From a virus (Duplodnaviria > Heunggongvirae > Uroviricota > Caudoviricetes): 21,355 nucleotides of DNA. The notes under the pieces were generated by a model. It ran no database searches and was not told the origin of the DNA. It saw only the letters and a list, made by a program, of their open reading frames with translations. Both the position numbers and the translations under genes were made by a program. How positions within the stretch are numbered: the first letter of the stretch is position 1; the number at the start of each line of letters is the position of its first letter. Shown piece after piece: positions 3,833 to 21,355 of the stretch. Location of the stretch: IMG/VR virus record IMGVR_UViG_2541047698_000017, positions 1-21,355 of that record; one strand, 5' to 3'.

Positions 3833-4576
3833 TTAACTGGCTTTCTTTTTCGGGCGTCCACGTTTTGCCGGTGTCGCACTCCGGGTCTTACGCGGGGCGC
3901 GGGTGGCCGCTTTTGGCTGTGGCTCCGGCTTCGGTTTCAGTTCCCGCTCCAGTCGTTCAATCTCTTTTTTGACGCCTGCCTGACAGTCGAGCTGTGTCGC
4001 ACGTTGCAGGTGCGCCAGCGCCCCTGCGGCATCACCAGCGTCACGCAGAAACAGACCGGTGATTTTGTGCAGCTTTGCGCGCACTTCATCAGGCATGTCA
4101 GCCGTGGCGGTCAGTTCAAGGGTGTCCGTCAGCAGGCGGGTATCCACAGACTCACCGGCAGCGTGAGCGCGCATGGCCGCAAGCGCCACCTCCTCGGTGA
4201 ACATGTACGGCGGGGTGCGGCGGTGTTTACCCGGCATGGTCAGACCGTACTTCAGGGCATAACGGGCAATCTCCAGCGCACCGGCAATATCGCCGGTATC
4301 CAGACGCCACAGCATGACCGTCATCAGAATGTCATCCTGTGCACCTTTGCCCTGCTCCAGCACGCCGTTCACCCACGGCAACCAGAACGGCAGCAGTTCG
4401 CGTTTTTTCGCGGCCTTCAGCTCTTTTGAATAAATCGCTTTCAGTGTGCGCTGGTCTGCGGCCAGCTTGACCAGCATCTGCTCATAGACAGTTGCATGTC
4501 GCAGCGGGGCGGCTTCCCGCTGCGCGGTCATCGCTGCCGAGACCCGCATCATGTGGCGCTGTGCGGGACTCGTCAT
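3833..4576 (-). CDS. M: P2 gpM-like terminase small (endonuclease) subunit (247 aa)
   Basis: Size and position directly downstream of N; basic Lys/Arg-rich C-terminal tail; synteny with P2 M. Confidence 0.88.
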   Translation of the reverse strand: MTSPAQRHMMRVSAAMTAQREAAPLRHATVYEQMLVKLAADQRTLKAIYSKELKAAKKRELLPFWLPWVNGVLEQGKGAQDDILMTVMLWRLDTGDIAGALEIARYALKYGLTMPGKHRRTPPYMFTEEVALAAMRAHAAGESVDTRLLTDTLELTATADMPDEVRAKLHKITGLFLRDAGDAAGALAHLQRATQLDCQAGVKKEIERLERELKPKPEPQPKAATRAPRKTRSATPAKRGRPKKKAS

Positions 4577-4579
4577 CGG

Positions 4580-5653
4580 TTACGCTCCCGGCTCTGCGGT
4601 CGCTTTAGCCGGTGTGGAGAAATCACCGACCTTAATTTTTTCCACCAGACAACCGGCGGCGTAGTCCTCCACCACGTAATCAATGTTCATTGACTCGTAG
4701 TTCTCCACGCGGTCGAGTTTCGGGTTTTCCTCAATCACGCGGCGATGGCTGTCATCCATGTAGTAGATGGACAGGTTTTCCAGCTTCGTGATGAGCATCG
4801 CATCCGCCGGGAAGTACGGGACGCGTACCGCTGGCAGGTTGCCGATGCGTTTCTGGCTGATGATGACGTCAGCGGCCAGCATTTCGCTGTTGTCCTGCTC
4901 CTTGTTAACGATGGGGAAATACTTGTCCGCCAGTAACTGACGTCCCACTATCACCACAAGGTCAGGGTCTTCCTGATACCACGGTTCGATCAGGTTGTTG
5001 GTCGCATCCATCACCAGTGCATCAAGGCTGGCATAATCACCGCCCTTACCCACGCGGATGACCTCAGAGGTCGTGTGACCTTCCTCGTCAGTGACCTTGC
5101 TCATCACGCGCGCCGGTGCTTCATTGCGGTATTTCTGCAGCCAGCCGACCGCCACATCCTGCAACATCGGATTGCTGCTGCGGTCAGAGGTTTCGGCACG
5201 CTTCACGCCGTTAAAACCGGCCATGATGAAATCAAGGGACTGGCGTTTGATAATGGCGTTACGGACACGGAGCTGGAAATCCTGATAACGCGCCCACAGG
5301 TCAAGCGTTTTGTAGCGGATATAAAAATCGAAGTTAATCTGGTCGCATTCGTACTTGTTTGACGCCAGCTTCGAGAAGTCCTTCGGCTGACGCTCGGTGC
5401 CACCGGCGGTGTCGGTGGTGCTGGCGATGGAGCCGGTGACACCGATGCCAATTTTTTCCCCTTTCATTTCGCTGACCGGCACAATGTTGATGCGGGTCAG
5501 AAAGTCAGAGGACTCCTGCATGGTGTTCATCAGGGTCTGGGTGACCGACGGTTCAACGGTGAATTTTTTCGACACATCACCGGCGTCGATGCCGTTCAGT
5601 TCGGCAACACGGGACAGGTAGGCATTAAATTTAAAGCGGGTTTCCTGGCGCAT
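4580..5653 (-). CDS. N: P2 gpN-like major capsid protein (357 aa)
   Basis: 357 aa; MRQETRFKFNAYLSRVAELNGIDAGDVSKKFTVEPSV... recognised as P2-family major capsid protein; lies between O and M. Confidence 0.92.
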   Translation of the reverse strand: MRQETRFKFNAYLSRVAELNGIDAGDVSKKFTVEPSVTQTLMNTMQESSDFLTRINIVPVSEMKGEKIGIGVTGSIASTTDTAGGTERQPKDFSKLASNKYECDQINFDFYIRYKTLDLWARYQDFQLRVRNAIIKRQSLDFIMAGFNGVKRAETSDRSSNPMLQDVAVGWLQKYRNEAPARVMSKVTDEEGHTTSEVIRVGKGGDYASLDALVMDATNNLIEPWYQEDPDLVVIVGRQLLADKYFPIVNKEQDNSEMLAADVIISQKRIGNLPAVRVPYFPADAMLITKLENLSIYYMDDSHRRVIEENPKLDRVENYESMNIDYVVEDYAAGCLVEKIKVGDFSTPAKATAEPGA

Positions 5654-5710
5654 AGTTTTTCCTGAAATTAAGGGTTAATCGTGAAGGTTTTCCCGGATGA
5701 CTGATGCCGG

Positions 5711-6565
5711 TCAGCAGTTCGTCATCAGGGCGTCACCGCCACCGCCGGTGGCCTTGCTGCGGCGCTGCTGGGTCAGACTTTCGGTGTGGTCGAGACTGTT
5801 TTTCAGGCGGGTGAATGCCTGGCTGGTTTCATCCGCCCTGTCAGTCACCTCCTGCTTAAGTGCGGAAAAGGCGGTTTCCATCTCCGCGAGGCGCTGCTCA
5901 GTGGCGCTCAGTTTTTCCTGCACATGTTCAGCAACAGCGGTCACCGCTTCATGCACGTCATTCAGACGGGCATCATCGCTGGCCTGTTTGCGGCCAAAAA
6001 TGGACTTCACCTTTTCGGTCAGGGCGGTGAACACGGTTTCAGGCAGGTCTTCAAATTCCAGCTCAACAGGCGTTGCCACTGAAATCAGGTTTTCAGGGCT
6101 TAATTTGAAGCGGTTCAGAGGGTTGTGTTTTGCCGTGCGGCAGAATTCCAGGTATTCCGTGCCGAGGCTTGCCGGGTCATCGGTGACGGCCAGCCCCACC
6201 AGATAACATTTGCCGGTGTTGGCAAAGTTCGGCTGAATTTCCATTGAGGTGTAGACCTTCTGCGCGGCCTTGTTCATCGCGATAAGGTCATTGGTCGGGG
6301 TGATTTTCGCAAACAGCGCCCATTTGCCTTTCAGCGCCGAATCATCGTCAATCTTTTCGGCCTTCAGTTCGGCCACATCGCCATAACGTTTAAAAATGCC
6401 GTCAGGCAGGATGCCGCGCAGATGTTCCAGGTTAATGCGGCAACCATAGACACGCGGGTCAAAGGTTTCGGCCATTTCCTGAATATCCTGCGCACTGATG
6501 ACACGCCCGTCACAGGTGTCACCCTCAACGCCGATACGAAAGAATTTTGAGACTTTTTTTGCCAT
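5711..6565 (-). CDS. O: P2 gpO-like capsid scaffolding protein/protease (284 aa)
   Basis: Internal ATG at 6565 (MAKKVSKFFRIGVEGDTCDGR...) gives 284 aa as in P2 O; the track's 306-aa form is a 5' extension. Confidence 0.9.
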   Translation of the reverse strand: MAKKVSKFFRIGVEGDTCDGRVISAQDIQEMAETFDPRVYGCRINLEHLRGILPDGIFKRYGDVAELKAEKIDDDSALKGKWALFAKITPTNDLIAMNKAAQKVYTSMEIQPNFANTGKCYLVGLAVTDDPASLGTEYLEFCRTAKHNPLNRFKLSPENLISVATPVELEFEDLPETVFTALTEKVKSIFGRKQASDDARLNDVHEAVTAVAEHVQEKLSATEQRLAEMETAFSALKQEVTDRADETSQAFTRLKNSLDHTESLTQQRRSKATGGGGDALMTNC

Positions 6566-6738
6566 TGTCAGGAGTCCTGAATAGTGATTAGAGGAGTCAC
6601 ATGTCGGCATCAGTTTCCCGACGATGCGCATCCTCCGCCATCAGTCCCGGATGGCTTATCACTGACACAACAGCACCTTAGCGAATCGCAGGGCGCGACT
6701 CAGTAGCCTTGCCGTGTATTCATCACGGCGAGGTATTC
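6566..6738. promoter_or_regulatory. Divergent O/P intergenic region, expected site of P2-type late promoters
   Basis: By P2 synteny the divergent late promoters for O and P lie here. I did not find a canonical TGT-N12-ACA activator site by eye, so this is positional only. Confidence 0.35.
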
Positions 6739-8511
6739 ATGACCATCACCACAGACACCACTCTTTTACACGACCCGCGTCGTCAGGCGGCGCTGCTGTA
6801 CTGGCAGGGGTTTTCCGTGCCGCAGATTGCCGCCATGTTGCAGATGAAACGCCCGACGGTGCAGAGCTGGAAACAGCGCGACGGCTGGGACAGCGTTGCC
6901 CCCATCAGCCGTGTCGAAATGAGTCTGGAAGCGCGACTGACCCAGCTCATCATCAAACCGCAGAAAACCGGTGGTGACTTCAAGGAAATTGACCTGCTCG
7001 GACGCCAGATTGAACGACTGGCACGGATAAACCGCTACAGTCAGACCGGCAACGAGGCAGACCTTAATCCGAACGTCGCTAACCGCAACAAAGGCGGGCG
7101 TCGCAAACCGAAAAAGAATTTTTTCAGTGACGAGGCCATCGAAAAGCTGGAGCAGATTTTCTTTGAGCAGTCTTTCGACTATCAGTTGCACTGGTATCGC
7201 GCCGGGCTTGAGCACCGCATCCGCGATATCCTGAAATCCCGCCAGATTGGCGCAACGTTTTATTTTTCCCGCGAGGCGCTGCTGCGCGCCCTGAAAACCG
7301 GCCATAACCAGATTTTTCTGTCGGCCAGTAAAACGCAGGCGTATGTATTCCGTGAATACATCATCGCCTTTGCCCGTCTGGTTGACGTTGACCTGACCGG
7401 TGACCCGATTGTCCTGGGCAATAACGGCGCAAAACTGATTTTTCTCGGCACAAACTCCAACACCGCGCAGAGCCATAACGGCGACCTGTACGTCGATGAG
7501 ATTTTCTGGATCCCGAATTTTCAGGTACTGCGTAAGGTGGCATCAGGTATGGCCTCACAGAGTCACCTGCGCTCGACCTATTTCTCCACCCCGTCCACGC
7601 TGGCGCACGACGCCTACCCGTTCTGGTCAGGTGAACTGTTCAACCGGGGACGCGCCAGCGCCGCCGAACGTGTGGAAATCGACGTCAGTCATAACGCCCT
7701 TGCCGGTGGGCTTCTCTGTGCGGACGGCCAGTGGCGGCAGATTGTCACCATTGAGGATGCCCTGAAAGGCGGCTGCACGCTGTTCGACATTGAGCAGCTC
7801 AAACGCGAAAACAGCGCCGACGATTTTAAAAACCTGTTCATGTGTGAATTTGTTGACGACAAGGCATCGGTGTTCCCGTTCGAGGAGCTGCAACGCTGCA
7901 TGGTCGACACGCTGGAAGAATGGGAAGACTATGCGCCGTTTGCCGCCAATCCGTTCGGCTCCCGCCCGGTATGGATTGGTTACGACCCGTCACACCGTGG
8001 CGACAGCGCCGGATGCGTGGTACTGGCACCGCCGGTGGTGGCCGGTGGCAAATTCAGAATACTTGAGCGTCACCAGTGGAAAGGCATGGACTTTGCCACC
8101 CAAGCTGAATCCATCCGCAAACTCACCGAAAAATACAACGTCGAATACATCGGTATTGATGCCACCGGCCTCGGTGTCGGCGTGTTCCAGCTCGTGCGCT
8201 CGTTCTATCCCGCCGCGCGTGATATCCGCTACACGCCGGAAATGAAAACCGCAATGGTGCTCAAGGCAAAAGACGTTATCCGCCGTGGCTGTCTGGAATA
8301 TGACGTCAGCGCCACCGACATCACCAGCTCGTTTATGGCTATCCGCAAGACCATGACCAGCAGCGGACGCAGCGCCACCTATGAAGCCAGCCGCAGCGAG
8401 GAAGCCAGCCACGCCGACCTCGCCTGGGCGACCATGCACGCCCTGTTAAATGAGCCACTCACCGCCGGTATCAGCACCCCGCTGACATCCACCATTCTGG
8501 AGTTTTACTGA
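6739..8511 (+). CDS. P: P2 gpP-like terminase large (ATPase) subunit (590 aa)
   Basis: ATG at 6739 (MTITTDTTLLHDPRRQAALLYWQGFSVPQIAAM...) with GAGG about 6 nt upstream gives 590 aa; the track start at 6709 is a TTG extension. Its stop overlaps the Q start (TGATG). Confidence 0.92.
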   Translation: MTITTDTTLLHDPRRQAALLYWQGFSVPQIAAMLQMKRPTVQSWKQRDGWDSVAPISRVEMSLEARLTQLIIKPQKTGGDFKEIDLLGRQIERLARINRYSQTGNEADLNPNVANRNKGGRRKPKKNFFSDEAIEKLEQIFFEQSFDYQLHWYRAGLEHRIRDILKSRQIGATFYFSREALLRALKTGHNQIFLSASKTQAYVFREYIIAFARLVDVDLTGDPIVLGNNGAKLIFLGTNSNTAQSHNGDLYVDEIFWIPNFQVLRKVASGMASQSHLRSTYFSTPSTLAHDAYPFWSGELFNRGRASAAERVEIDVSHNALAGGLLCADGQWRQIVTIEDALKGGCTLFDIEQLKRENSADDFKNLFMCEFVDDKASVFPFEELQRCMVDTLEEWEDYAPFAANPFGSRPVWIGYDPSHRGDSAGCVVLAPPVVAGGKFRILERHQWKGMDFATQAESIRKLTEKYNVEYIGIDATGLGVGVFQLVRSFYPAARDIRYTPEMKTAMVLKAKDVIRRGCLEYDVSATDITSSFMAIRKTMTSSGRSATYEASRSEEASHADLAWATMHALLNEPLTAGISTPLTSTILEFY

Positions 8512-9545
8512 TGAGCAAGAAAAAAGGGAAAACACCGCAACCTGCGGCAAAAAAAATGACTGCCAGCGCCCCGAAAATGGAGGCATTCACCTTTGGCGAG
8601 CCGGTGCCGGTACTCGACCGCCGTGACATTCTGGATTACGTCGAATGCATCAGTAACGGCAGATGGTATGAGCCGCCGGTCAGCTTTACCGGGCTGGCAA
8701 AAAGTCTGCGTGCTGCCGTGCATCACAGCTCACCGATTTACGTCAAACGCAATATTCTGGCCTCGACATTTATCCCGCATCCGTGGCTTTCCCAGCAGGA
8801 TTTCAGCCGCTTTGTGCTGGATTTTCTGGTGTTCGGCAATGCGTTTCTGGAAAAGCGTTACAGCACCACCGGTAAGGTCATCAGACTGGAAACCTCACCG
8901 GCAAAATATACCCGCCGTGGGGTGGAAGAGGATGTTTACTGGTGGGTGCCGTCCTTCAACGAACCGACAGCCTTCGCGCCCGGCTCCGTATTTCACCTGC
9001 TGGAGCCGGATATCAATCAGGAGCTGTACGGCCTGCCGGAATATCTCAGCGCCCTTAACTCTGCCTGGCTGAATGAGTCGGCCACGCTGTTCCGCCGCAA
9101 GTATTACGAAAACGGCGCACATGCCGGATACATCATGTACGTCACCGACGCCGTGCAGGATCGCAACGATATCGAAATGCTCCGCGAAAACATGGTGAAG
9201 TCGAAAGGCCGCAACAACTTTAAAAATCTGTTTCTCTACGCCCCGCAGGGAAAAGCCGACGGCATTAAAATTATCCCGCTCAGTGAAGTGGCGACGAAAG
9301 ACGATTTTTTTAATATCAAAAAAGCCAGCGCCGCAGACCTGCTGGACGCGCACCGCATCCCCTTTCAGTTGATGGGCGGCAAGCCGGAGAACGTCGGGTC
9401 GCTGGGTGATATTGAGAAAGTGGCAAAGGTCTTTGTCCGCAATGAGCTTATCCCGTTACAGGACAGGATCCGCGAGATAAACGGCTGGCTCGGTCAGGAG
9501 GTCATCCGATTTAAAAACTACTCACTGGACACTGACAACGGCTGA
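8511..9545 (+). CDS. Q: P2 gpQ-like portal protein (344 aa)
   Basis: 344 aa (MSKKKGKTPQPAAKKMTASAPKMEAFTFGEPVPVLDRRD...); lies downstream of P and next to cos, as in P2. Confidence 0.92.
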   Translation: MSKKKGKTPQPAAKKMTASAPKMEAFTFGEPVPVLDRRDILDYVECISNGRWYEPPVSFTGLAKSLRAAVHHSSPIYVKRNILASTFIPHPWLSQQDFSRFVLDFLVFGNAFLEKRYSTTGKVIRLETSPAKYTRRGVEEDVYWWVPSFNEPTAFAPGSVFHLLEPDINQELYGLPEYLSALNSAWLNESATLFRRKYYENGAHAGYIMYVTDAVQDRNDIEMLRENMVKSKGRNNFKNLFLYAPQGKADGIKIIPLSEVATKDDFFNIKKASAADLLDAHRIPFQLMGGKPENVGSLGDIEKVAKVFVRNELIPLQDRIREINGWLGQEVIRFKNYSLDTDNG

Positions 9546-9550
9546 ACATC

Positions 9551-9572
9551 GCCGCCTGCGGGCGGCTTTTTT
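9551..9572 (+). terminator. Rho-independent terminator after Q
   Basis: GC hairpin gccgcc-tgcg-ggcggc followed directly by tttttt, 6 nt after the Q stop. Confidence 0.7.
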
Positions 9573-9714
9573 ACACCCCGTCATCACGCCCTCACACGCT
9601 CACCACCGCACAAAACACCCCGCAGACACACCAACGCCTCAACGGGCAGACTAAGCGCCGTCACGACGCGCTGAGACGCTGAAAAAATAAAATCAGCACC
9701 ACCGCCAGCGCGCA

Positions 9715-9733
9715 GTGCTTTCCCCGCCTCGCC
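9715..9733. other. cos site: 19-nt cohesive-end sequence of P2/P4/186-type phages
   Basis: gtgctttccccgcctcgcc is the exact reverse complement of the P2 cohesive end GGCGAGGCGGGGAAAGCAC as I recall it; it sits next to Q as on the P2 map. Confidence 0.7.
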
Positions 9734-9779
9734 CGCCCGCTTCATGGGGCGGTTTTAATGCAGTTGCATCAGGAAATCA

Positions 9780-9961
9780 GAGCTCTACCAACACTAGCAC
9801 GCCCCCACATGCTTTGAAATAAAAGCGAATGCAAACTCATGCACCAGTTAGATGCATTAGCACAAAGCTGAAAATCATAAAATAAGCGGCATAATCCCCC
9901 TCATGCTACCAAGAAACTCTCAAGATGTTGTGCTAAACATCGATGATCTGTACCTTGTTTT
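9780..9961 (+). promoter_or_regulatory. AT-rich upstream region of the accessory island; putative promoter
   Basis: Composition shifts abruptly to AT-rich after about 9780; weak -35/-10-like hexamers (ttgaaa at 9814, cataat at 9890) but no convincing sigma70 match. Confidence 0.3.
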
Positions 9962-11428
9962 ATGGTAAACATATCTATAAGTAATCACACAGATGGAACT
10001 AAAATAACTATGGCAAACGATATCATCGAAGCTTTTCCTGCAAAACGTTTCTTTGTAGAAATGTTAACCAGGGATATCGAACTCCAAGATGCTATTCTTG
10101 ACTTATTAGACAACTGTCTTGATGGCGCTCTTCGTTCCATTTCATCATCGAATGAAGAAATAAACGAAGAAAATAAATACCACGGTTTTTACTCAAAAAT
10201 AAATTTTAATGAAGATGGTTTTACAATTGAAGATAATTGTGGCGGAATTTCGGGAAGCTTAGCAACAAGCTATGCTTTCCGAATGGGAAGACCAAATGAA
10301 AGAGACATAGATAATATCCCAACCATTGGTGTTTATGGGATAGGTATGAAGCGAGCTATTTTTAAGTTGGGCACTTCATCGCAAGTATTAAGTAAAACAA
10401 AAGACGAGGAATTTAAAGTTACAATTTCTCCAGAATGGTTATCCAATGATAAAAACTGGAAACTAGATCTCGAACGTGGTAATGTCGATTTAAAAACAAC
10501 GGGCGTAAAAATTATAGTTAACGATCTCAGAGACGATGTAAAAAACCATTTCAAAGTTGATCGTGATTTTCAACAAAAATTAATCAATTCTGTTTCAAAC
10601 CATTATAGCCTAATTCTTAATAAAGGTTTCAAGGTCTATATTAATGATATAGAAGTCAAGCCAAATCTGACATCATTAATTATCGATACCGAAGCTCTTG
10701 TGTCAGCGAAAAAAGGTGGTATCACGCCTTATTTTTACAGAGGTGAAACTAATGGAGTTTCAATAAAGATCGCAGTTGGATTCTATAGAGATTTTGTGAC
10801 AGAAGATGAGGAAAATTCATTCCTTACTGGACGTAACACTTCCGAGAAAGCCGGATGGACTATTATCTGCAATGATCGTGTTGTTGTTCATGCGGACAAG
10901 ACACGTCTTACCGGATGGGGTGAAGCAGGAGTTCCACAATATCACACACAATTTGTTGGAATTGCAGGCGTAGCTATTTTTACATCTAATGAAGCTGAAA
11001 AATTACCTATTACTACTACCAAGAGAGGCATTGATGGTAATTCTGATATCTATTTGGCTACTAAAGATTTCATGCGTGAAGGCTTGAAAATATTTACAGA
11101 TTTTACTAACAGATGGAAAAGTAACTCTCCAGAACGCCAGCAAATGTTTAGTTCCACATCTAAAACAATTCCTCTTACAAACGACAAACTAGATAGCATA
11201 GTACCTGAAGATAAATGGTCTCGGGTGCATAGATCCATTGGTGGGAATAGTTTCAAACCAACATTGCCAATACCTAAAGAAACAGACCCTTTAAAGCAAA
11301 TAAAATTTAGTAGAAGATTGAGTGAGATAAAAACTGTTGCCACTTTCATTTTCGATGATGATTCTGTTCCTCCGACAGAAATTGGTAATTATTGCTTTGA
11401 AGATTTTTTAGAGAGGGCAAAAAAATGA
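9962..11428 (+). CDS. GHKL-superfamily (MORC/MutL-like, Bergerat-fold) ATPase, 488 aa; start uncertain (alternative ATG at 10010)
   Basis: Three GHKL motifs in order: motif I ELQDAILDLLDNCLDGAL (compare MutL ELVENSLDA), G1 box FTIEDNCGGIS (DxGxG), G2 box IGVYGIGMKRAIFKLG (closest to the MORC-type G2 box). About 350 C-terminal residues have no motif I can assign. Neither candidate start has a strong Shine-Dalgarno sequence. Confidence 0.75.
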   Translation: MVNISISNHTDGTKITMANDIIEAFPAKRFFVEMLTRDIELQDAILDLLDNCLDGALRSISSSNEEINEENKYHGFYSKINFNEDGFTIEDNCGGISGSLATSYAFRMGRPNERDIDNIPTIGVYGIGMKRAIFKLGTSSQVLSKTKDEEFKVTISPEWLSNDKNWKLDLERGNVDLKTTGVKIIVNDLRDDVKNHFKVDRDFQQKLINSVSNHYSLILNKGFKVYINDIEVKPNLTSLIIDTEALVSAKKGGITPYFYRGETNGVSIKIAVGFYRDFVTEDEENSFLTGRNTSEKAGWTIICNDRVVVHADKTRLTGWGEAGVPQYHTQFVGIAGVAIFTSNEAEKLPITTTKRGIDGNSDIYLATKDFMREGLKIFTDFTNRWKSNSPERQQMFSSTSKTIPLTNDKLDSIVPEDKWSRVHRSIGGNSFKPTLPIPKETDPLKQIKFSRRLSEIKTVATFIFDDDSVPPTEIGNYCFEDFLERAKK

Positions 11429-12417
11429 GTACTGGGGGAAGTATTCCTTATCATCTTCGACAACACAAAGCTGTCGAAAGAAATCTATTCATTGAGTTGC
11501 TCAGAAAACTCAACAACTATGTAAACATATCCGATTATGTTTATATCGGGTTTGGTGGCCCTTTTCTAGAAGACTTCAAACAACTGCATAATGCTTTAAA
11601 AATCAATAACATGATCTCTCTAGAGGTAGATGCTAACGTTCATAAACGACAAAAATTTAACAAACCTATATCATGTATTGATTTAGGAGAAGAACCTTTA
11701 AGTAGCAGTGAATTTATTACTCAAAGCGACTTCGCTGCACCTTCTCTAATTTGGCTTGACTATGCCATACCAAGCCAAATATATGAGCAAATGAATGACA
11801 TTGCTCAATTGGTAAGTAAGTTAAAGCCAAAAGATATATTTAAAATAACTTTAAATGCAACTCCTGAAACTTTAGGAAGAGATTTTCAAGAAAGAGACCC
11901 TAGGCGTTTTCGATTAAAAAAAATACAATCTTTACTTACTCAAGATTATTGCCCAGTGAATCTAACTGTTGATGATGTCACTTTTAAAAGGTACCCACAC
12001 CTTTTAATAAAAGCAGCTCAACGTGCCATAAGTATTGGATTAACAGGTAGACCAGATATAATGATCCATCCTTTATGTAATTTTATTTACAAAGATGGTC
12101 AGCAAATGCTTACCTTTACTGCCATTGTTCTCGAAAACAGTGATATGCAATTAGATAGCTTCCTTCAAAATTCTCGAATTAATTTTTGGCCCTTTTATTC
12201 TGGAGACTGGGGCACCGTCAAAAACATTAGTGTTCCCACGATGTCTTTACGTGAGAGAATCTTTATTGAGGAACGACTTCCTACAAAAGACCATGAAGAA
12301 ATTACCAACGACCTCGGCTTTTACATTGGAGATGATGAAGCCGAGGCTAATAGTAACCTTAAAAACTTTATTGAGTATTACAAAGTAATTCCGTGGTATT
12401 CGAAAGTTCTTCTTTAG
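11425..12417 (+). CDS. Protein of unknown function (330 aa), translationally coupled to the GHKL ATPase; candidate effector or specificity partner
   Basis: Its ATG overlaps the upstream stop (ATGA at 11425-11428), with GAGAGGG about 8 nt upstream. No motif recognised with confidence; only a weak Rossmann-like glycine-rich segment (YVYIGFGGPFLEDF ... ISLEVD). Confidence 0.7.
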   Translation: MSTGGSIPYHLRQHKAVERNLFIELLRKLNNYVNISDYVYIGFGGPFLEDFKQLHNALKINNMISLEVDANVHKRQKFNKPISCIDLGEEPLSSSEFITQSDFAAPSLIWLDYAIPSQIYEQMNDIAQLVSKLKPKDIFKITLNATPETLGRDFQERDPRRFRLKKIQSLLTQDYCPVNLTVDDVTFKRYPHLLIKAAQRAISIGLTGRPDIMIHPLCNFIYKDGQQMLTFTAIVLENSDMQLDSFLQNSRINFWPFYSGDWGTVKNISVPTMSLRERIFIEERLPTKDHEEITNDLGFYIGDDEAEANSNLKNFIEYYKVIPWYSKVLL

Positions 12418-13519
12418 AAAACTGACATAATTTATATAACGGTAATAGCATAGCTTCAGCTACTAATGGGCTAACGCTATTACCGATTTGCCTGAAACTA
12501 TGCCACTTAGTAGGGTGAAACCTAAACCAATCAGGAAAACCTTGTAATCGAGCAGCCTCACGTGGAGTAATAACTCTAGCCTGCGTTGGATGGATCGGCC
12601 TAACTGCTTGATAACTGCCCTTATCGCTGCCAGTTCCAGCCCTTAGCGTCGGACAGAAACCATTTGGATTTAACCTCTGAGATCGTGAAATTTTATCAGT
12701 TTCGCCAAAAGAGAGTTTTTTATATCTATTAATAACCTCATCTGTATGTATTGTTCCCAAGAAACCGGAGACCAACCCTTTTTTTAATTTTTCTAAAGAT
12801 TCCGGATCACCAACATTATTCGGAACATTACTCCAAAGTCTATCAAAAAAATATCCTTGCCTATCCATCTTAACTTCACGCCAGCCTTGTTCCTCTTGCT
12901 GCCATTCTTTTCTTATAACACGAGGAATACCGTATAAAGCATCTTTAACTAAGGTTTGCTCAATATCTTGCACAGGAAAGAAATCAGATTCTTTTAAACA
13001 ATTAGCTAATTCCTTTTTGAATCCGATAAAAAAAATCCTAGTTCTAGTTGTAGGAGCTCCATAATTAGACGCATTCACTTTTATTGGGCTCAATATTACA
13101 TATCGGTCTTTTACTAATGAGAATGCTTTTTCTCTAACTGCATCATATTTTTCATTCATTATCCCAGGAACATTCTCTGCCAAGAAACAAACAGGTGATA
13201 ACTCGCTCACCAACCTAAAAAAATGAATATACAATTCATTTCTGACGTCATTAGCCATCCCTTTACCAATTGTACTAAATCCCTGACAAGGTGGTCCACC
13301 GATGACACAATCAATATTACTAACATTACAAGCTGTTAGAATATCATGAGCAGAAAGTTTGCTAACATCTTTATGTAAATGTGTTGAATTTGGGAAATTA
13401 AGAGCATGGGAAAATATTGCATGCTTATCCAACTCAACGGCACCAACCAAGTTAAAGCCTGCCCGTGATGCTCCCAAGCTTAAACCACCTACCCCTGAGT
13501 ATAAATCAACCACATTCAT
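12368..13519 (-). CDS. DNA (cytosine-5)-methyltransferase, Dcm-like (383 aa)
   Basis: Canonical m5C-methyltransferase motifs: I DLYSGVGGLSLG, IV GGPPCQGFS (catalytic Cys), VI ENVPG, VIII TTRTRIF, X QIGNSVSP. Gene is AT-rich; its 3' end overlaps the convergent partner gene by 50 nt. Confidence 0.88.
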   Translation of the reverse strand: MNVVDLYSGVGGLSLGASRAGFNLVGAVELDKHAIFSHALNFPNSTHLHKDVSKLSAHDILTACNVSNIDCVIGGPPCQGFSTIGKGMANDVRNELYIHFFRLVSELSPVCFLAENVPGIMNEKYDAVREKAFSLVKDRYVILSPIKVNASNYGAPTTRTRIFFIGFKKELANCLKESDFFPVQDIEQTLVKDALYGIPRVIRKEWQQEEQGWREVKMDRQGYFFDRLWSNVPNNVGDPESLEKLKKGLVSGFLGTIHTDEVINRYKKLSFGETDKISRSQRLNPNGFCPTLRAGTGSDKGSYQAVRPIHPTQARVITPREAARLQGFPDWFRFHPTKWHSFRQIGNSVSPLVAEAMLLPLYKLCQFSKEELSNTTELLCNTQ

Positions 13520-13569: not shown

Positions 13570-15870
13570 TTACTTGAGCTCTTTGCTGAAGTACTCATTA
13601 CTAAAACCCTGCCACTCATCGACATTACTTGCCACATACTTATATTTTTTATCATCGAATATCACCATCGCACCACGCGCCAGCGCCTCAAGCTCCCATC
13701 GCTGTGGCCTGATACCGTTCTGAGCAAGGTCAACGCGGATACGGGTAATTTGCATTCGTTCCGACCGGGTCAGTCTGGCCGATGGCGCTATTTCATGCGG
13801 TTTTAACGGGCTTCCGTTTCTTTGCTGACGGTTTGGTCTTCTCAGGCCGTGTTTTAATGCGCCCCTGAGCGCCCTCACGACCTCCGGTTCATTCCATTCA
13901 ATAACACCGTCATCAACCAGATTAAGCACTGCTGCGGCGTGCTCAGAAGGTGTGGGAGCCGGTAACGAAGTATCACCACCGGTGAGCTTTCCACAGTTAT
14001 TGACAGGACTCCGAGGCGCGGCGATGCCGCTTTTTAAAGTCAAAGGCTCAACGACCGGCACTTTCGGAACAATGCGCCAGTCCGTCGTTCTGGTGATATG
14101 AATATGACGCGCGCCGAGATGCGGCGCGTAAATGCCGACCACTCTCTCGACTTCTTCCTCGTACTCGTTAACGTCATCCGACGGGCTACGGGCGACCCTG
14201 ACAGTCTGGCAATCGCGCGGGACATTTGCCCCGCCCTGCGCGCTGATATACAACGCAAAATCACCACTGTCTGCAGCGGCGCGTGCAGCCTCGACGCGCT
14301 CGTCAAACTCATCAGCAATGCTGACGCCGCGAGGCAATTTGCGTAGTTCACGGTAAGCCCCCATTGTCGGCAGACCAACCGTTTTAAATTGCGGAATGCG
14401 CCACGTTGACGCCCATGCGGTAACAGCCGCAGCTGTGTCTTTCAGCGGTCTACCGGTATCATTATCGAGCTGACCATCCAGTGCATAGCCGTCGATGTTT
14501 TTTGAGATGTATTTCGCGATATATCCCGCAGCACCGCCCCGGTTAAGGTGTTTTGCCTGAAAACGGTTTCGCGCAGCTCCTCTTTCGTCGCCATCCTCTT
14601 TGAGCGCGTAGCGACGCATGATTTCAATAATCTGGTTACGCTGGCGTGGATTACAAAAAAGCATCATATGCCAGTGCGGCGTTCCGTCGTGGTGTGGTTC
14701 AACAACACGCAAACCGTAGGCCTGTAAATCATTATCCTTGAATGCCGTGCGCATCAGGCTCCAGATACGGCAGAGATAACGCTGCGCATCCTTTGGATTA
14801 AATGCCTCATCGTTCCAGCCGTGATTTAGCTGGACGGTTTTACTTTCGCCTTTTCTGACCTGACGTGTCGGGTGATACTTTGACGGCGCGGTCAGCGTGA
14901 TAAACATCCCTACATCACCCTCTGCGGCGGCGTAACGCTCAATACCGGCGATGGTGTTCATCAGCTCCATCCGGCGAATTTCTGGATTAGAAATACTGCC
15001 CATCACCTTACTGATAAGGTCGATGCGCTCGCCGGTTTCCTTGTTTTCAAGGTCACACGATTTAAGAAATTCCAGATTTGCCTGGCGGCGCGCACGCACA
15101 TCACGAATGGCATGTTTACTGGCATAAGGAGAACGGTCTTTATTGACCTCCCCGACAGCAATCAGTAACGCCTCATGCCAGCGCATACGCTGGCCTTTAA
15201 GCTGATGAGTCCACCACTCATCGTTAAACAGGCGGGCAATGGCAGAATATGCCTGCCTCGTGGTCATCTGCCCTTTACGGTATTTTTTCCAGTAAAGCGG
15301 GGAAATATTGAAAGCACGTGCAGCGCCAGCAACATGACCATACAGATGTGCCTGCGCCTCATCCGTAAACAGCGATTCTTTTTCGCCATGCGCATCCACC
15401 CAGGCATCGCAGAGTTCCTCATACATCATGAAAAGCTGCGATGAGATACGGGCAGCAAACTTTTTCAGCTCCTTGTCATTCATTCCCGGCAGGCGCGCAT
15501 AGTGGTCACGCTCTGCCAGAAACAGCAACGACGCGTCGGTGTTCATTTCATGGCGCTGATTCACACGCTCAATGCGCGGCCATAAACGACGCTGAAAAGT
15601 GGATGTGAGGAAATAAAACCCGTGCACCGGGCTTTTATTGCGCCGGATGTAGTCATAGCGTGAAGTAAACAGCGAGCGCAAAAAGTAAGGCAGGCGGTTA
15701 ATCGTGGATAAAACACCTTGCACCTGACGCATCTCGTCACGTGTAAGGGGTCTTTCGCGCCCGACAGCCTCGCGTGGCGCGTTCCATGCATAAGCACCGG
15801 TAAACGCCTTACCGGTGCCTGCGGCAAATGCTGACGGAGGGACAAAACGCCCGGAGGCTTTAACGGCCAT
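13570..15870 (-). CDS. A: P2 gpA-like rolling-circle replication initiator (766 aa from ATG 15870)
   Basis: HUH motif (EPHHDGTPHWHMMLF) and active-site tyrosine region (GYIAKYISKNIDGY). ATG at 15870 (MAVKASGRFVPPSAF...) overlaps the orf83 stop; the track start at 15912 is TTG. Confidence 0.9.
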   Translation of the reverse strand: MAVKASGRFVPPSAFAAGTGKAFTGAYAWNAPREAVGRERPLTRDEMRQVQGVLSTINRLPYFLRSLFTSRYDYIRRNKSPVHGFYFLTSTFQRRLWPRIERVNQRHEMNTDASLLFLAERDHYARLPGMNDKELKKFAARISSQLFMMYEELCDAWVDAHGEKESLFTDEAQAHLYGHVAGAARAFNISPLYWKKYRKGQMTTRQAYSAIARLFNDEWWTHQLKGQRMRWHEALLIAVGEVNKDRSPYASKHAIRDVRARRQANLEFLKSCDLENKETGERIDLISKVMGSISNPEIRRMELMNTIAGIERYAAAEGDVGMFITLTAPSKYHPTRQVRKGESKTVQLNHGWNDEAFNPKDAQRYLCRIWSLMRTAFKDNDLQAYGLRVVEPHHDGTPHWHMMLFCNPRQRNQIIEIMRRYALKEDGDERGAARNRFQAKHLNRGGAAGYIAKYISKNIDGYALDGQLDNDTGRPLKDTAAAVTAWASTWRIPQFKTVGLPTMGAYRELRKLPRGVSIADEFDERVEAARAAADSGDFALYISAQGGANVPRDCQTVRVARSPSDDVNEYEEEVERVVGIYAPHLGARHIHITRTTDWRIVPKVPVVEPLTLKSGIAAPRSPVNNCGKLTGGDTSLPAPTPSEHAAAVLNLVDDGVIEWNEPEVVRALRGALKHGLRRPNRQQRNGSPLKPHEIAPSARLTRSERMQITRIRVDLAQNGIRPQRWELEALARGAMVIFDDKKYKYVASNVDEWQGFSNEYFSKELK

Positions 15871-16135
15871 GTGAGCCAAAAGCCTCTGAACAACGCTTGC
15901 TGAGTTGCTCAACCTGCGCGTTTAAATCAGCAAAAGATTTTGCGCTTCCGGTCAGAATATCGTGATGCATCATGCCGGAAACGAGCTGGCTTAATTTCGG
16001 GTAATAACCAACCACCGCCAGCCATTCCTGGCCGGCGTTTTTACCGCTTTCCGCTCTCTTTTTCTCGTGGAGAATAAACTGAAAGCTGTCACTGGTAACG
16101 ACATAACGTTCGCCAATTTCGATACGAATACTCAT
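15860..16135 (-). CDS. P2 orf83-like small early protein (91 aa)
   Basis: ORF directly upstream of A on the same strand; its ATG overlaps the orf82 stop (ATGA). Confidence 0.65.
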   Translation of the reverse strand: MSIRIEIGERYVVTSDSFQFILHEKKRAESGKNAGQEWLAVVGYYPKLSQLVSGMMHHDILTGSAKSFADLNAQVEQLSKRCSEAFGSHGR

Positions 16136-17899: not shown

Positions 17900-18020
17900 C
17901 TGCTACGATTCTCCCTTAGTGCTTCTAATGGCTCCTAATGGCTAATTATTGCCTAAAAGGATAACTCCAGAAGCACAACATTTCACACTATCAGCAAGAA
18001 ATTACGCAATCGGAGTAATT
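17900..18020. promoter_or_regulatory. Divergent immunity promoter/operator region (Pe for cox/early operon, Pc for C)
   Basis: Lies between divergent cox and C, the P2 architecture; contains a tandem decamer repeat (see repeat feature). Confidence 0.6.
17925..17944. repeat. Tandem direct repeat ctaatggctc / ctaatggcta in the cox-C intergenic region; candidate operator half-sites
   Basis: Two near-identical 10-bp units seen directly at 17925-17934 and 17935-17944. Confidence 0.5.
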
Positions 18021-18320
18021 ATGTCAATAGACGTTTCGGAGAAGTTGAAGCTAATCCGTGAATCTGAAAGGTTAAACCGTAAAGAATTCAGTGAATTAAC
18101 TGGTGTAGCCTACAGCTCACTTTCGAGCTATGAGAGCCGGTCAAAAAACGCTGGAGTTGAAGCCATAATGAAGGTCTTACAACATCCCAGATTTACTAAA
18201 TATACTTTGTGGTTCATGACTGATCAGGTAGCTCCAGAAGCCGGGCAAATTGCGCCCGCTCTCGCACACTTTGGGCAAAACGAAACAACGTCGCCCCACT
18301 CCGGTCAAAAGACTGGTTAA
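18021..18320 (+). CDS. C: C-type immunity repressor (99 aa)
   Basis: ATG at 18021 with GGAG 5 nt upstream; helix-turn-helix-like N-terminus (RKEFSELTGVAYSSLSSYES) and conserved P2 C-family C-terminus (FTKYTLWFMTDQVAPEAGQIAPALAHFGQNETTSPHSGQKTG). Confidence 0.85.
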   Translation: MSIDVSEKLKLIRESERLNRKEFSELTGVAYSSLSSYESRSKNAGVEAIMKVLQHPRFTKYTLWFMTDQVAPEAGQIAPALAHFGQNETTSPHSGQKTG

Positions 18321-18434: not shown

Positions 18435-19448
18435 ATGGCAATCAAAAAACTCGATGATGGTCGATATGAAGTGGACATCCGCCCTACTGGACGTAACGGA
18501 AAACGCATCCGTAGGAAGTTTGATAAGAAAAGCGAAGCTGTCGCTTTCGAAAAATACACGTTGTACAACCACCACAATAAAGAATGGCTATCAAAACCAA
18601 CAGACAAACGACGTCTGTCGGAACTGACACAGATCTGGTGGGATTTAAAGGGTAAACACGAAGAGCATGGGAAATCTAATCTTGGAAAAATTGAAATCTT
18701 CACAAAAATAACGAATGACCCATGCGCATTTCAAATCACGAAATCCCTTATCAGCCAGTACTGCGCCACCCGAAGAAGTCAGGGTATTAAACCTTCGAGT
18801 ATCAATCGTGATTTAACATGTATTAGCGGCATGTTTACAGCCCTGATTGAAGCGGAGTTATTCTTTGGTGAGCACCCTATCAGAGGGACAAAGAGGCTTA
18901 AGGAGGAAAAACCAGAAACAGGCTATCTCACACAGGAAGAAATTGCCTTACTGCTTGCAGCACTTGACGGCGACAATAAAAAGATTGCGATTCTTTGCCT
19001 GAGTACAGGAGCACGTTGGGGAGAAGCAGCTCGTTTGAAAGCAGAAAATATCATCCATAACCGCGTCACGTTTGTTAAAACGAAAACAAACAAACCACGC
19101 ACCGTCCCGATCTCAGAGGCTGTTGCCAAAATGATCGCGGATAACAAACGAGGTTTTTTATTCCCTGATGCTGATTACCCTCGCTTCAGACGAACAATGA
19201 AAGCAATAAAACCGGATTTGCCAACGGGGCAAGCCACACATGCACTAAGGCACAGCTTTGCCACTCATTTCATGATTAATGGAGGAAGTATTATCACGCT
19301 ACAACGGATACTAGGTCACACGCGGATTGAGCAAACTATGGTTTACGCTCATTTTGCGCCAGAGTACCTTCAGGACGCCATTTCTCTTAATCCGCTAAGA
19401 GGTGGTACTGAAGCCGAGAGTGTCCACACAGTGTCCACAGTAGAGTAA
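18435..19448 (+). CDS. int: P2-type tyrosine integrase (337 aa)
   Basis: 337 aa; tyrosine-recombinase catalytic motifs (HALRHSFATH; LGHTRIEQTMVYAH); GGAGGG Shine-Dalgarno; 3' end next to the att core. Confidence 0.92.
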   Translation: MAIKKLDDGRYEVDIRPTGRNGKRIRRKFDKKSEAVAFEKYTLYNHHNKEWLSKPTDKRRLSELTQIWWDLKGKHEEHGKSNLGKIEIFTKITNDPCAFQITKSLISQYCATRRSQGIKPSSINRDLTCISGMFTALIEAELFFGEHPIRGTKRLKEEKPETGYLTQEEIALLLAALDGDNKKIAILCLSTGARWGEAARLKAENIIHNRVTFVKTKTNKPRTVPISEAVAKMIADNKRGFLFPDADYPRFRRTMKAIKPDLPTGQATHALRHSFATHFMINGGSIITLQRILGHTRIEQTMVYAHFAPEYLQDAISLNPLRGGTEAESVHTVSTVE

Positions 19449-19527
19449 CGTTTAAGGGCTTTCAGTGGTAATTTATGCCGCTCAAACCCGCATTGTACCG
19501 TTGAAAGCCCCTACTGGTGACACCCTA

Positions 19528-19554
19528 AATCTCCCTTACACGGGCTTATTTTTT
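19528..19554. other. 27-bp phage attachment core (P2 locI-type), int-proximal prophage/host junction
   Basis: aatctcccttacacgggcttatttttt is the reverse complement of the P2 att core AAAAAATAAGCCCGTGTAAGGGAGATT as I recall it, which coincides with the 3' terminator of the host sRNA gene cyaR. It lies 80 nt after the int stop. Confidence 0.6.
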
Positions 19555-19724
19555 GTGCATAAACCATAGAGACGGATTGATCCCAGGTGACCGTCTTCCA
19601 TTGACCACATCGATAGAATCTCCCTTCATAGCACGATGCCTTTCACGTAACGGCATCGTGCTCGCACAGGTTCCGGCTAAGCACAACCAGAACGCGCATG
19701 TTTGACGCTTACCAAAAAATATTC

Positions 19725-20042
19725 TCACTCTCCACATTTGAATGTCAGACGAGCGACGCCATGTAATCCTGCACCTTCTGTCTTCAGGTCAACTATCTGC
19801 ATTTTTTTGCCCTGAGTAACACAGAAATGAGCTGCATCATTTTTTACTATATTTTCTGCACCAGATATTCTGCCCCTGGCTAAAGAAGCTTCGGCTTCGG
19901 TGTAGTATTGGTTATCGAGTTTACGCTGAATATTACTTTTATATGCAAGACCAAATTTACCGATACTTGTCTCATCATTATGTACAGCACACCCAGACAT
20001 AAGAAAAACACTAATTAATGATATAGCAGCTATCTTTTTCAT
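19725..20042 (-). CDS. yegR: Host small exported, lipoprotein-like protein (YegR-like, 105 aa)
   Basis: ATG at 20042 gives MKKIAAISLISVFLMSGC..., a signal peptide with Cys; its position divergent from yegS matches the E. coli yegR-yegS neighbourhood as I recall it. Confidence 0.6.
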   Translation of the reverse strand: MKKIAAISLISVFLMSGCAVHNDETSIGKFGLAYKSNIQRKLDNQYYTEAEASLARGRISGAENIVKNDAAHFCVTQGKKMQIVDLKTEGAGLHGVARLTFKCGE

Positions 20043-20455
20043 CTTACCTTCCCCCATTAAATACCAACGACACGCTCTGGTGTTAAAATATAATAATGGC
20101 ATGATTATTATAATTGAATAGGATTATAATAAATGTTCTGTACAACATTTCCTACATAAGTAGGAATTACAAACATGAAGCCCTGCCCAGGTATCCCCAT
20201 GAGGGCTTTAATATATTTAGAATAAGATAGTGAAGATGCCACTGTTTAGTTGAATATTAGGTATATGCTCTTTTTTGAAATTTACCGGTGGCTACCGTTA
20301 ACATTCACTGTCCCCATTGCAAGCTCCTGGTGGTAACCACTGAATCCTCCATACTTGAACTGATTTTTATCCTCCGACTTTCATCCTGTTCTGACTCCAC
20401 CTTTTCTTTTCTGCTCTACACTATCTACAGACCAATCATAAAGGCACATACGATC

Positions 20456-21355
20456 ATGGCAGAATTTCCCGCCAGCTTACTGATTCTTAATGGCAAAAGT
20501 ACTGACAATTTACCATTGCGCGAAGCAATTATGCTGTTGCGTGAGGAAGGAATGACGATCCATGTGCGGGTCACCTGGGAGAAAGGCGATGCCGCACGAT
20601 ATGTAGAGGAGGCCCGGAAGTTGGGCGTCGCAACGGTGATTGCCGGTGGTGGCGATGGCACCATTAATGAAGTTTCTACGGCGTTGATTCAGTGTGAGGG
20701 GGATGACATACCCGCGCTAGGAATTTTGCCATTAGGAACCGCCAATGATTTTGCCACCAGTGTAAGGATTCCTGAGGCACTGGATAAGGCGCTGAAACTG
20801 GCAATTGCCGGTGACGCCATTGCGATAGATATGGCGCAGGTCAACAAACAAACCTGTTTTATTAATATGGCGACAGGCGGATTTGGGACGCGTATTACCA
20901 CAGAAACGCCGGAAAAATTAAAAGCCGCGCTGGGTGGCGTCTCTTACATCATTCATGGCTTAATGCGCATGGATACTCTGCAACCGGACCGTTGTGAGAT
21001 CCGCGGTGAAAACTTTCACTGGCAAGGTGACGCCCTGGTCATTGGTATTGGTAACGGGCGTCAGGCCGGTGGCGGTCAGCAATTGTGCCCGAACGCGTTA
21101 ATTAACGATGGCTTGCTGCAACTGCGCATTTTTACCGGCGATGAAATTCTTCCGGCTCTCGTATCAACATTAAAATCTGACGAAGATAACCCGAATATTA
21201 TCGAAGGCGCTTCGTCGTGGTTTGATATACAAGCCCCACACGAAATCACTTTTAATCTTGATGGCGAACCGTTGAGCGGACAAAACTTTCATATTGAAAT
21301 ACTTCCGGCGGCGTTGCGTTGTCGATTACCACCAGATTGCCCATTGTTGCGTTAA
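20456..21355 (+). CDS. yegS: Host lipid kinase YegS (299 aa), complete
   Basis: [28 protein letters not shown]... with the diacylglycerol-kinase-family GGDGT motif ([12 protein letters not shown]); 299 aa from ATG 20456; the track start at 20288 is an upstream extension. Confidence 0.85.

Follow-up and report, generated by a model that had tools for sequence, protein, structure and literature searches.

The 21,355-nucleotide stretch analysed here (IMG/VR record IMGVR_UViG_2541047698_000017, called the window below) has, by its Pfam gene calls, the content of an Escherichia coli P2-like prophage. We found that it carries a cassette of three genes: a MORC-like GHKL ATPase with an S5-fold domain (10010-11428, plus strand, 472 amino acids), a partner protein with a methyltransferase fold (11425-12417, plus strand, 330 amino acids) and a Dcm-type C5 cytosine DNA methyltransferase (12368-13519, minus strand, 383 amino acids), which is convergent with the partner gene. 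The linkage of the ATPase to its partner and to Dcm extends across phyla, and the cassette is located in prophages and defence islands. We propose that the trio is a restriction-like defence module that is keyed to 5-methylcytosine (5mC), lacks a nuclease and uses the ATPase as an ATP motor or MORC-type clamp. We give this reading about an even chance of being correct.

A preliminary description of the window had recognised a GHKL ATPase in this open reading frame (ORF). This was borne out by a Pfam HATPase_c_3 match (1e-9) and by structure prediction, which gave a Bergerat fold. The motif I, G1 and G2 boxes that it had named were all located, and they are invariant in the 72 homologues from many phyla on which the conservation of ATPase residues was assessed. 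Motif I (LDLLDNCLDGA, 10097-10129, plus strand) has D31, N35 and D38 as invariant residues, and N35 is the expected Mg2+ ligand, the Asn of ExxxNxxD. Motif II, or G1 box (EDNCGGIS, 10229-10252, plus strand), conforms to DxGxG with D75, N76, C77, G78 and G79 invariant. Motif III, or G2 box (IGVYGIGMKRAIFKLG, 10325-10372, plus strand), conforms to GxxGxG with G107, Y109, G110, G112, K114, R115, F118, K119 and G121 invariant, and a fourth Bergerat box (the GT of motif IV) is present as G165-T166 within GTxIxVxxL. The MORC-like character of the G2 box, which had also been put forward earlier, agrees with an hmmsearch against the PDB, in which it aligned with the G2 box of MORC3 in a match confined to the GHKL part (E 0.25). 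The start codon had been described as ambiguous between 9962, which would give 488 amino acids, and 10010. Both ATGs exist, but the choice between them is not evenly open. The start is most likely at 10010, because RefSeq places it there, the PHROG profile of the ATPase (471 positions) begins there, and more than 100 listed homologues are 460-480 amino acids long, without the 16-residue N-terminal extension.

At the position of the general-base Glu of GHKL motif I, four residues before N35, the ATPase has Asp (D31, 10100-10102). This conservative substitution, which is absent from the preliminary description, occurs in 76 of 79 short forms, in all six long paralogues (described below) and in distant viral copies. 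It suggests slow or regulated ATP hydrolysis, that is, a switch or clamp over a fast motor.

Residues from about 200 to 345 form, in the AlphaFold2 model of the ATPase (predicted local distance difference test, pLDDT, 86.8), an S5-fold transducer domain as in MORC, MutL and Hsp90-type ATPases. A GHKL domain followed by an S5-fold domain with a conserved basic residue is the arrangement given for MORCs by Iyer, Abhiman and Aravind 2008 (PMC2292703), and the ATPase has this arrangement. The loop LPITTTKRGIDGNS (LPxTTTKRG, 11003-11044, plus strand) contains the invariant residues L332, P333, T336, T337, K338, R339 and G340. Transducer lysines that contact the gamma-phosphate of ATP are found in the QTK loop of GyrB, at K307 of MutL and in the S5 domain of MORC. 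By analogy with these residues, K338 (11021-11023) is a candidate transducer lysine and may act as the sensor of the ATP gamma-phosphate.

The signature GhXhhpXXRhl is stated in the same source to be common to MORCs and to set them apart from other GHKL proteins (Iyer et al. 2008, PMC2292703). The strand GWTIICNDRVV of the S5 domain (10853-10885, plus strand, residues 282-292) fits this signature. The pattern is present in 70 of 72 family members against 0.4% of shuffled sequences, and it is kept in ATPase copies at 33-37% identity and in the longer paralogue. In the model, the strand sits on an S5 beta-hairpin and is a candidate equivalent of the MORC strand. Pairwise comparison of the ATPase gave values of 285 and 22.2 with the mouse MORC3 ATPase module (20% identity), 300 and 19.2 with SMCHD1, and 317 and 19.0 with MORC2. 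Hsp90/TRAP1 proteins, which have an N-domain plus middle-domain arrangement in common with the ATPase, were the best Foldseek matches of the model (E 1e-15, about 420 aligned columns of 472 residues, TM score about 0.49). At the sequence level, the PDB searches gave no significant match for the ATPase and none for the S5 fragment alone, and the Pfam scan of the ATPase at E <= 0.1 returned only HATPase_c_3 and a spurious phage-tail match. We regard the designation as a GHKL ATPase with a transducer domain as solid and the term MORC-like as well supported; strict membership of the MORC family is not proven.

The C-terminal region of about 350 residues, to which the preliminary description had assigned no function, has to be divided. 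Its distal part, residues 346-472 (11045-11425, plus strand, about 125 amino acids), is indeed a family-specific extension, mostly helical in the model and without a domain match in Pfam, PADLOC or NCBIfam, while the proximal part is the S5 transducer. The statement that the region holds no recognisable nuclease motif agrees with our searches, which found no nuclease family in these three collections. The suggestion that a nuclease or sensor activity, if there is one, is likely to lie in the C-terminus or in the coupled partner was not borne out as regards a nuclease. The invariant residues of the extension in the 72 sequences are K, W, P, G, F, T, M and L only, with no Asp, Glu or His, so that a metal-dependent nuclease site in it is unlikely, and the partner has a class-I S-adenosylmethionine (SAM) methyltransferase fold. 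It could still be argued that the C-terminal region of the ATPase is a cryptic nuclease or sensor domain, as MutL, paraMORC3/Shedu and topoisomerases pair GHKL modules with nucleases, and the S5 domain has unusually many invariant polar residues (N288, D289, R290, D296, K297, H312 and Q314). However, with residues 200-345 folded as a transducer, an extension devoid of invariant acidic residues and His, and no nuclease family matched, we consider this explanation very improbable. A PD-(D/E)xK site at D289...D296-K297 was ruled out, the fold being S5 and not that of a restriction endonuclease and the spacing being atypical.

The partner gene is tightly coupled to the ATPase gene. Its start overlaps the ATPase stop by 4 nucleotides (ATGA) in the window, as in most of 72 loci, and its Shine-Dalgarno sequence, AGAGGG, lies within the 3' end of the ATPase gene on the plus strand. 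The protein matches Pfam PF20553 (Methyltransf_35, "putative O-methyltransferase") at 1.5e-84; the O-methyltransferase label, which RefSeq also gives, is a prediction. In the partner model (pLDDT 91), a class-I SAM methyltransferase fold is followed by a helical C-terminal part, and the best structural matches of the model are nucleic-acid methyltransferases. In the Rossmann-like fold, beta1 is followed by a Gly-rich loop (G44), while beta2 and beta4 end in an acidic residue (E67) and an Asp (D112), respectively. These three positions, where SAM binding or catalysis is expected, are kept in 68-69 of the 69 sequences compared, even in those with no more than 25-30% identity, and an N-terminal basic helix (Y9, R12, K15 and R19) is conserved to an equal degree. 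A K-D-K-E tetrad of 2'-O-methyltransferases was sought and ruled out, as K140 is lost in the copy of Pseudomonas phage PfAC20 and no conserved Glu stands at the right spacing. At 50% identity the PF20553 family falls into 2003 clusters, of which 922 are at E <= 1e-30, and among the best 150 of the 2003 representatives nearly all are standalone proteins of about 315-350 amino acids. The PDB sequence search gave no significant match for the partner.

The third gene encodes a complete C5 cytosine methyltransferase with PCQ, ENV and GN motifs, and it could serve as the cognate methyltransferase of a Type II restriction-modification (R-M) system. It matches Pfam DNA_methylase (8.6e-58), PADLOC MTase_II (7.9e-95), TIGR00675 and PDB entry 3g7u (E 1e-156), a structural-genomics structure from an O157 prophage. 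The target-recognition region is 40-53% identical to that of the window Dcm in about 40 loci of distant phyla, which suggests that a single specificity prevails. At their 3' ends, the partner gene (plus strand) and the Dcm gene (minus strand) overlap by 50 bp (12368-12417). By analogy with some R-M systems, this overlap could allow control by antisense transcription or transcriptional interference.

The linkage of the three genes was surveyed in 80 genome loci, taken from contigs of one genome per species and covering more than 12 phyla. The partner gene is immediately downstream of the ATPase gene in 73 of them, and a Dcm gene lies within 5 kb in 65. The Dcm gene is upstream and co-directional in 21 loci, downstream and convergent in 25, downstream and co-directional in 8, and upstream and divergent in 2; the convergent arrangement seen in the window is the commonest (25/56). 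Pairwise-identity matrices of the ATPase and the partner are correlated with r = 0.79, compared with 0.33 and 0.25 for those with Dcm. The ATPase and its partner therefore co-evolve as a unit, whereas the methylase is exchanged more freely. The two proteins most likely form a complex.

Among the other neighbours are Vsr, found with the trio in 19 loci, and an HhH-GPD glycosylase, found in 4; both are expected beside 5mC methylases. These neighbours bring up the explanation that the ATPase is a MutL analogue which helps Vsr or the glycosylase to repair T:G mismatches arising from deaminated 5mC of the linked Dcm. We consider a repair role of this kind improbable. Neither the window nor the O157 and Pf cassettes contain Vsr, and about three quarters of the loci lack it; the obligate methyltransferase-fold partner is left unexplained, and the ATPase has no MutL C-terminal dimerisation/endonuclease domain. 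MutL identity as such was ruled out on the transducer family and the C-terminal domain. Compared with the N-terminal domain of MutL, the ATPase also lacks a Pfam DNA_mis_repair or MutL_C match and has a different partner.

Cyanobacteria depart from the common arrangement in two ways. Eleven loci (L011, L015-L017 and L020-L026) have ATPase-partner pairs with no Dcm gene within 5 kb. In one cyanobacterial lineage (L032, L047, L048, L049, L038, L058 and L071) the ATPase occurs without the partner. Its chromosomal site is fixed in this lineage, with housekeeping genes as neighbours, and there it adjoins Dcm in four loci and stands alone in three.

In the defence module that we propose, Dcm would place 5mC on resident DNA and so provide the basis for telling self from non-self. 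The MORC-like ATPase would bind ATP, dimerise through its N-terminal domain and then clamp on DNA or move along it. The partner, held at a fixed ratio by translational coupling, would either read out the unmethylated target by base flipping or carry out a nucleic-acid methylation of its own. The resulting phenotype would be defence, with unmarked incoming DNA blocked in a way that dispenses with a classical restriction nuclease. A bolder form of this proposal is nuclease-free restriction, in which a bacterial MORC clamp and a methyltransferase-fold reader or writer would topologically entrap, compact or chemically poison unmethylated incoming DNA, with Dcm marking self, as an antecedent of the eukaryotic silencing of transposons by MORC proteins and DNA methylation. 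We hold this form to be rather unlikely.

The same components would fit two other functions. In the first, abortive infection, the ATPase would respond to DNA that is unmethylated or comes from a phage, or else to a protein of the phage, and would license the partner to methylate host rRNA or tRNA and thereby arrest translation; Dcm would merely silence the sensor on host DNA. This explanation is in our view quite unlikely. In the second, the cassette would restrict nothing: the partner would be a second, ATP-assisted methyltransferase, clamp-loaded or processive, that decorates prophage and host DNA together with Dcm for anti-restriction or epigenetic purposes. The presence of two methyltransferase-fold proteins and no nuclease speaks for modification only, as do the conserved SAM-site residues of the partner, the occurrence of the cassette on three unrelated phage types and the cyanobacterial pairs without a linked Dcm. 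On the other hand, known anti-restriction methylases act alone, without an ATPase, and the architecture resembles that of R-M systems, with a tight link to a Dcm that has its own transcription and is often joined by Vsr, and with placement in defence islands. In addition, the old/tin slot of P2 phages holds mostly defence cargo. For these reasons we regard a purely modifying cassette as quite unlikely, and the defence module as the reading to be preferred.

For a defence module, the question of the nuclease is central. No nuclease domain was found by Pfam or PADLOC in the three ORFs, so that the endonuclease of a Type II R-M system is lacking from the window cassette, and the O157 and Pf cassettes have no nuclease either. 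In about 70 genome loci, no more than about 11 have a recognised restriction endonuclease next to the trio. An HNH Type II enzyme (PADLOC 2e-118) is upstream of the ATPase gene in 4 genome loci, a Type II restriction endonuclease is present in 2-3, and the cyanobacterial loci L032 and L047 combine ATPase, Dcm and a Type II restriction endonuclease (PADLOC PDLC03404, 5e-127) in the absence of the partner. Either the pair itself restricts and a nuclease is dispensable, or the pair supplements 5mC R-M systems, of which phages would carry a reduced form.

A longer GHKL paralogue (546-610 amino acids) is encoded next to Dcm in several trio loci and is adjacent in 7 (among them L003:1021-2853, L004:6225-7865, L007:10981-12726 on the minus strand, L014:11761-13452, L043:12078-13835 and L069:195-1892 on the minus strand). 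It has the motif I Asp and the xCNDR motif of the S5 domain as in the ATPase. Its C-terminal residues, about 200 in number, match PADLOC models of PD-Lambda-5_A (E 4e-23), a component of an anti-phage system that was discovered in E. coli by experiment.

Several observations weigh against the proposed module or against the MORC-like assignment on which it draws. In the Foldseek ranking Hsp90 came first and MORC3 only fiftieth, so that the phrase "closest to MORC" depends on the method. The curated MORC S5 model of Pfam (Morc6_S5) gives no match to the ATPase. With Asp in place of the catalytic base, ATP hydrolysis may be reduced or even abolished. PADLOC v2 and NCBIfam (release 20) contain no model that the ATPase or the partner matches. 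The window cassette has no nuclease that would account for the effector step, and the HNH and other restriction endonuclease neighbours could mean that the pair is an accessory of classical R-M systems and not their restricting part. Furthermore, the cyanobacterial pairs without an adjacent Dcm, and the lineage in which the ATPase stands alone, show that linkage to a methylase in cis is not obligatory, and the pair is therefore not obviously lethal without a linked one. Finally, ATPase-partner pairs that are 60-70% identical adjoin Dcm genes with divergent recognition regions, and the pair is therefore probably not hard-wired to one DNA sequence.

The closest precedent is a prediction. Iyer, Abhiman and Aravind 2008 (PMC2292703) placed prokaryotic MORC and paraMORC ATPases in R-M systems and saw them as ancestral to eukaryotic MORC silencers. 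The present family resembles the systems described there, in which GHKL plus S5 proteins are encoded beside cytosine methylases, Vsr and sometimes an HNH nuclease and a second GHKL paralogue. Judged by its description in that paper, paraMORC1 is similar in its intact motifs, its conserved extension beyond the S5 domain and the company of a MORC gene, methylases and HNH; the ATPase family likewise has the conserved 346-472 extension, the longer GHKL paralogue in 7 loci and the HNH restriction endonuclease in 4. However, paraMORCs as described lack the MORC motif (PMC2292703), which the ATPase family fits. In contrast to the MORC and paraMORC R-M operons as they are portrayed there, the core cassette has neither helicase nor nuclease, and the passages of PMC2292703 on these operons do not mention the PF20553 partner. 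We found no experimental study of the prokaryotic MORC-type ATPases predicted in 2008 and no account of the ATPase-partner-Dcm trio in the literature searched. We rate the family as a variant of the theme of MORC and paraMORC proteins in R-M systems predicted in 2008.

Eukaryotic MORC3 (PDB 5ix1), MORC2 (5of9) and SMCHD1 are just 14-20% identical to the ATPase. Compared with eukaryotic MORCs, the ATPase lacks the CW zinc finger, the coiled coil and any other chromatin-reader domain, has Asp in place of the catalytic Glu, ends in a C-terminal extension of its own and is obligately accompanied by the methyltransferase-fold partner. GHKL ATPases are also encoded in the anti-phage systems MZA (MzaB) and Shedu type I-D/paraMORC3 (VcSduA), the latter protective in experiments (PMC12137116). 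Identity with MzaB was rejected on an NCBIfam NF041932 score of 14.5 bits against a cut-off of 850 and the lack of a PADLOC Mza match. Identity with Shedu type I-D/paraMORC3 was rejected as there is no DUF4263 PD-(D/E)xK match in Pfam or PADLOC and no invariant acidic residue past position 345. WonAB and VcSduA (PMC12137116) are different systems, namely an ABC ATPase with a nuclease and a GHKL-Shedu fusion. Type III R-M and BREX systems are alike in plan, with a separate or integral methyltransferase that marks self and an ATPase complex that acts on unmarked DNA. BREX is not known to cleave DNA. Nevertheless, the trio has no homology to any component of BREX or Type III systems, its mark is the 5mC of a stand-alone Dcm, and its ATPase is of the GHKL and not the P-loop type.

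Temperate phages carry the cassette in their cargo (lysogenic-conversion) slots. In IMG/VR, all three genes are present in 62 of 63 ATPase-bearing viral loci, 20 of which are at the P2 slot between portal and gpA, and PHROGs has one unnamed PHROG each for the ATPase and the partner. The exact island of the window occurs in 3 of 5426 complete E. coli genomes. A second E. coli variant occupies the same P2 slot in 46 genomes of this set (L082:9802-11853, E. coli elppa5 and 45 others); the adjacent P2 replication gene A is annotated there as a truncated pseudogene, and these prophages may be defective and yet have retained the cassette. A third variant, with an ATPase 41% identical to that of the window, is found in 173 of the 5426 genomes, in the lambdoid prophage Sp10/CP-933R, which occurs in O157:H7 and its relatives and whose cassette genes have so far been listed just as "putative methyltransferase" and "hypothetical". 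Some version of the cassette is thus present in 222 of the 5426 genomes (4%), and it was prophage-borne in every case inspected. In the Pseudomonas filamentous phage PfAC20 (PP058144; L083:280-3711) the trio constitutes ORF1-3, which makes P2-like, lambdoid and filamentous phages the three unrelated phage types that carry it; a second, short "DNA cytosine methyltransferase" is encoded by ORF9 of PfAC20 (5438-6082). On bacterial chromosomes the flanks often contain other defence genes (MADS mad3/6/8, AriA, PD-T4-6, PD-T4-4_A and PDC-S03/S70).

In the window, the cassette fills a low-GC cargo island that has the P2-type cos/portal region on one side and replication gene A on the other. The composition profile gives 35-36% GC for the stretch between portal and gene A against 52-58% for its flanks. 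The island is bounded at about 9800 and 13569, because only 9546-9799 (about 254 bases) of the intergenic part is common to other P2-like phages and prophages. The three ORFs take up the island entirely; a hidden fourth gene for Vsr or a restriction endonuclease was sought in it and none was found, the ORFs of 9546-10010 all being 53 amino acids or shorter. The equivalent slot of phage P2 is the site of old and tin, and the slot was reportedly identified by Rousset and colleagues in 2022 as a hotspot of defence cargo. Two strong terminator-like hairpins (6 G-C pairs and a T run; 9551-9566 and 9733-9752) lie 3' of the portal gene and upstream of the island, in the P2 cos-proximal region. A candidate sigma-70 promoter, CTGAAA-16-CATAAT (9868-9895, plus strand), is located upstream of the ATPase gene; it is weakly supported (9/12 matches in a consensus scan), and the number of such sites in the region is not clearly above that in shuffled sequence.

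The remainder of the window consists of P2-type genes identified by Pfam. On the minus strand are genes for the small terminase (3833-4576), the P2 major capsid protein (4580-5653), the scaffold GPO (5711-6631) and, beyond the island, replication protein A (GPA, 13570-15912). The large terminase (6709-8511), the portal (8511-9545), a helix-turn-helix repressor-like gene (17949-18320) and the integrase (18435-19448) are on the plus strand. Beyond the integrase, the right end of the window has two short minus-strand ORFs without annotation (19546-20102) and a yegS-like lipid kinase gene (DAGK_cat and YegS_C), which is probably host DNA. The prophage attachment site is expected between the integrase side and this kinase gene, within 18435-21355. 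No tRNA genes are present in the window.

The trio is a compact form of a prokaryotic MORC-type system, with three genes that can be cloned directly. It could give defence catalogues a new family, as PADLOC and NCBIfam have no model for the ATPase or the partner. If the trio protects bacteria against phages, its effector step would have to do without a recognisable nuclease. Working out the trio would reveal how a MORC clamp deals with methylated as opposed to unmethylated DNA, and would do so in bacteria, where such questions are tractable.

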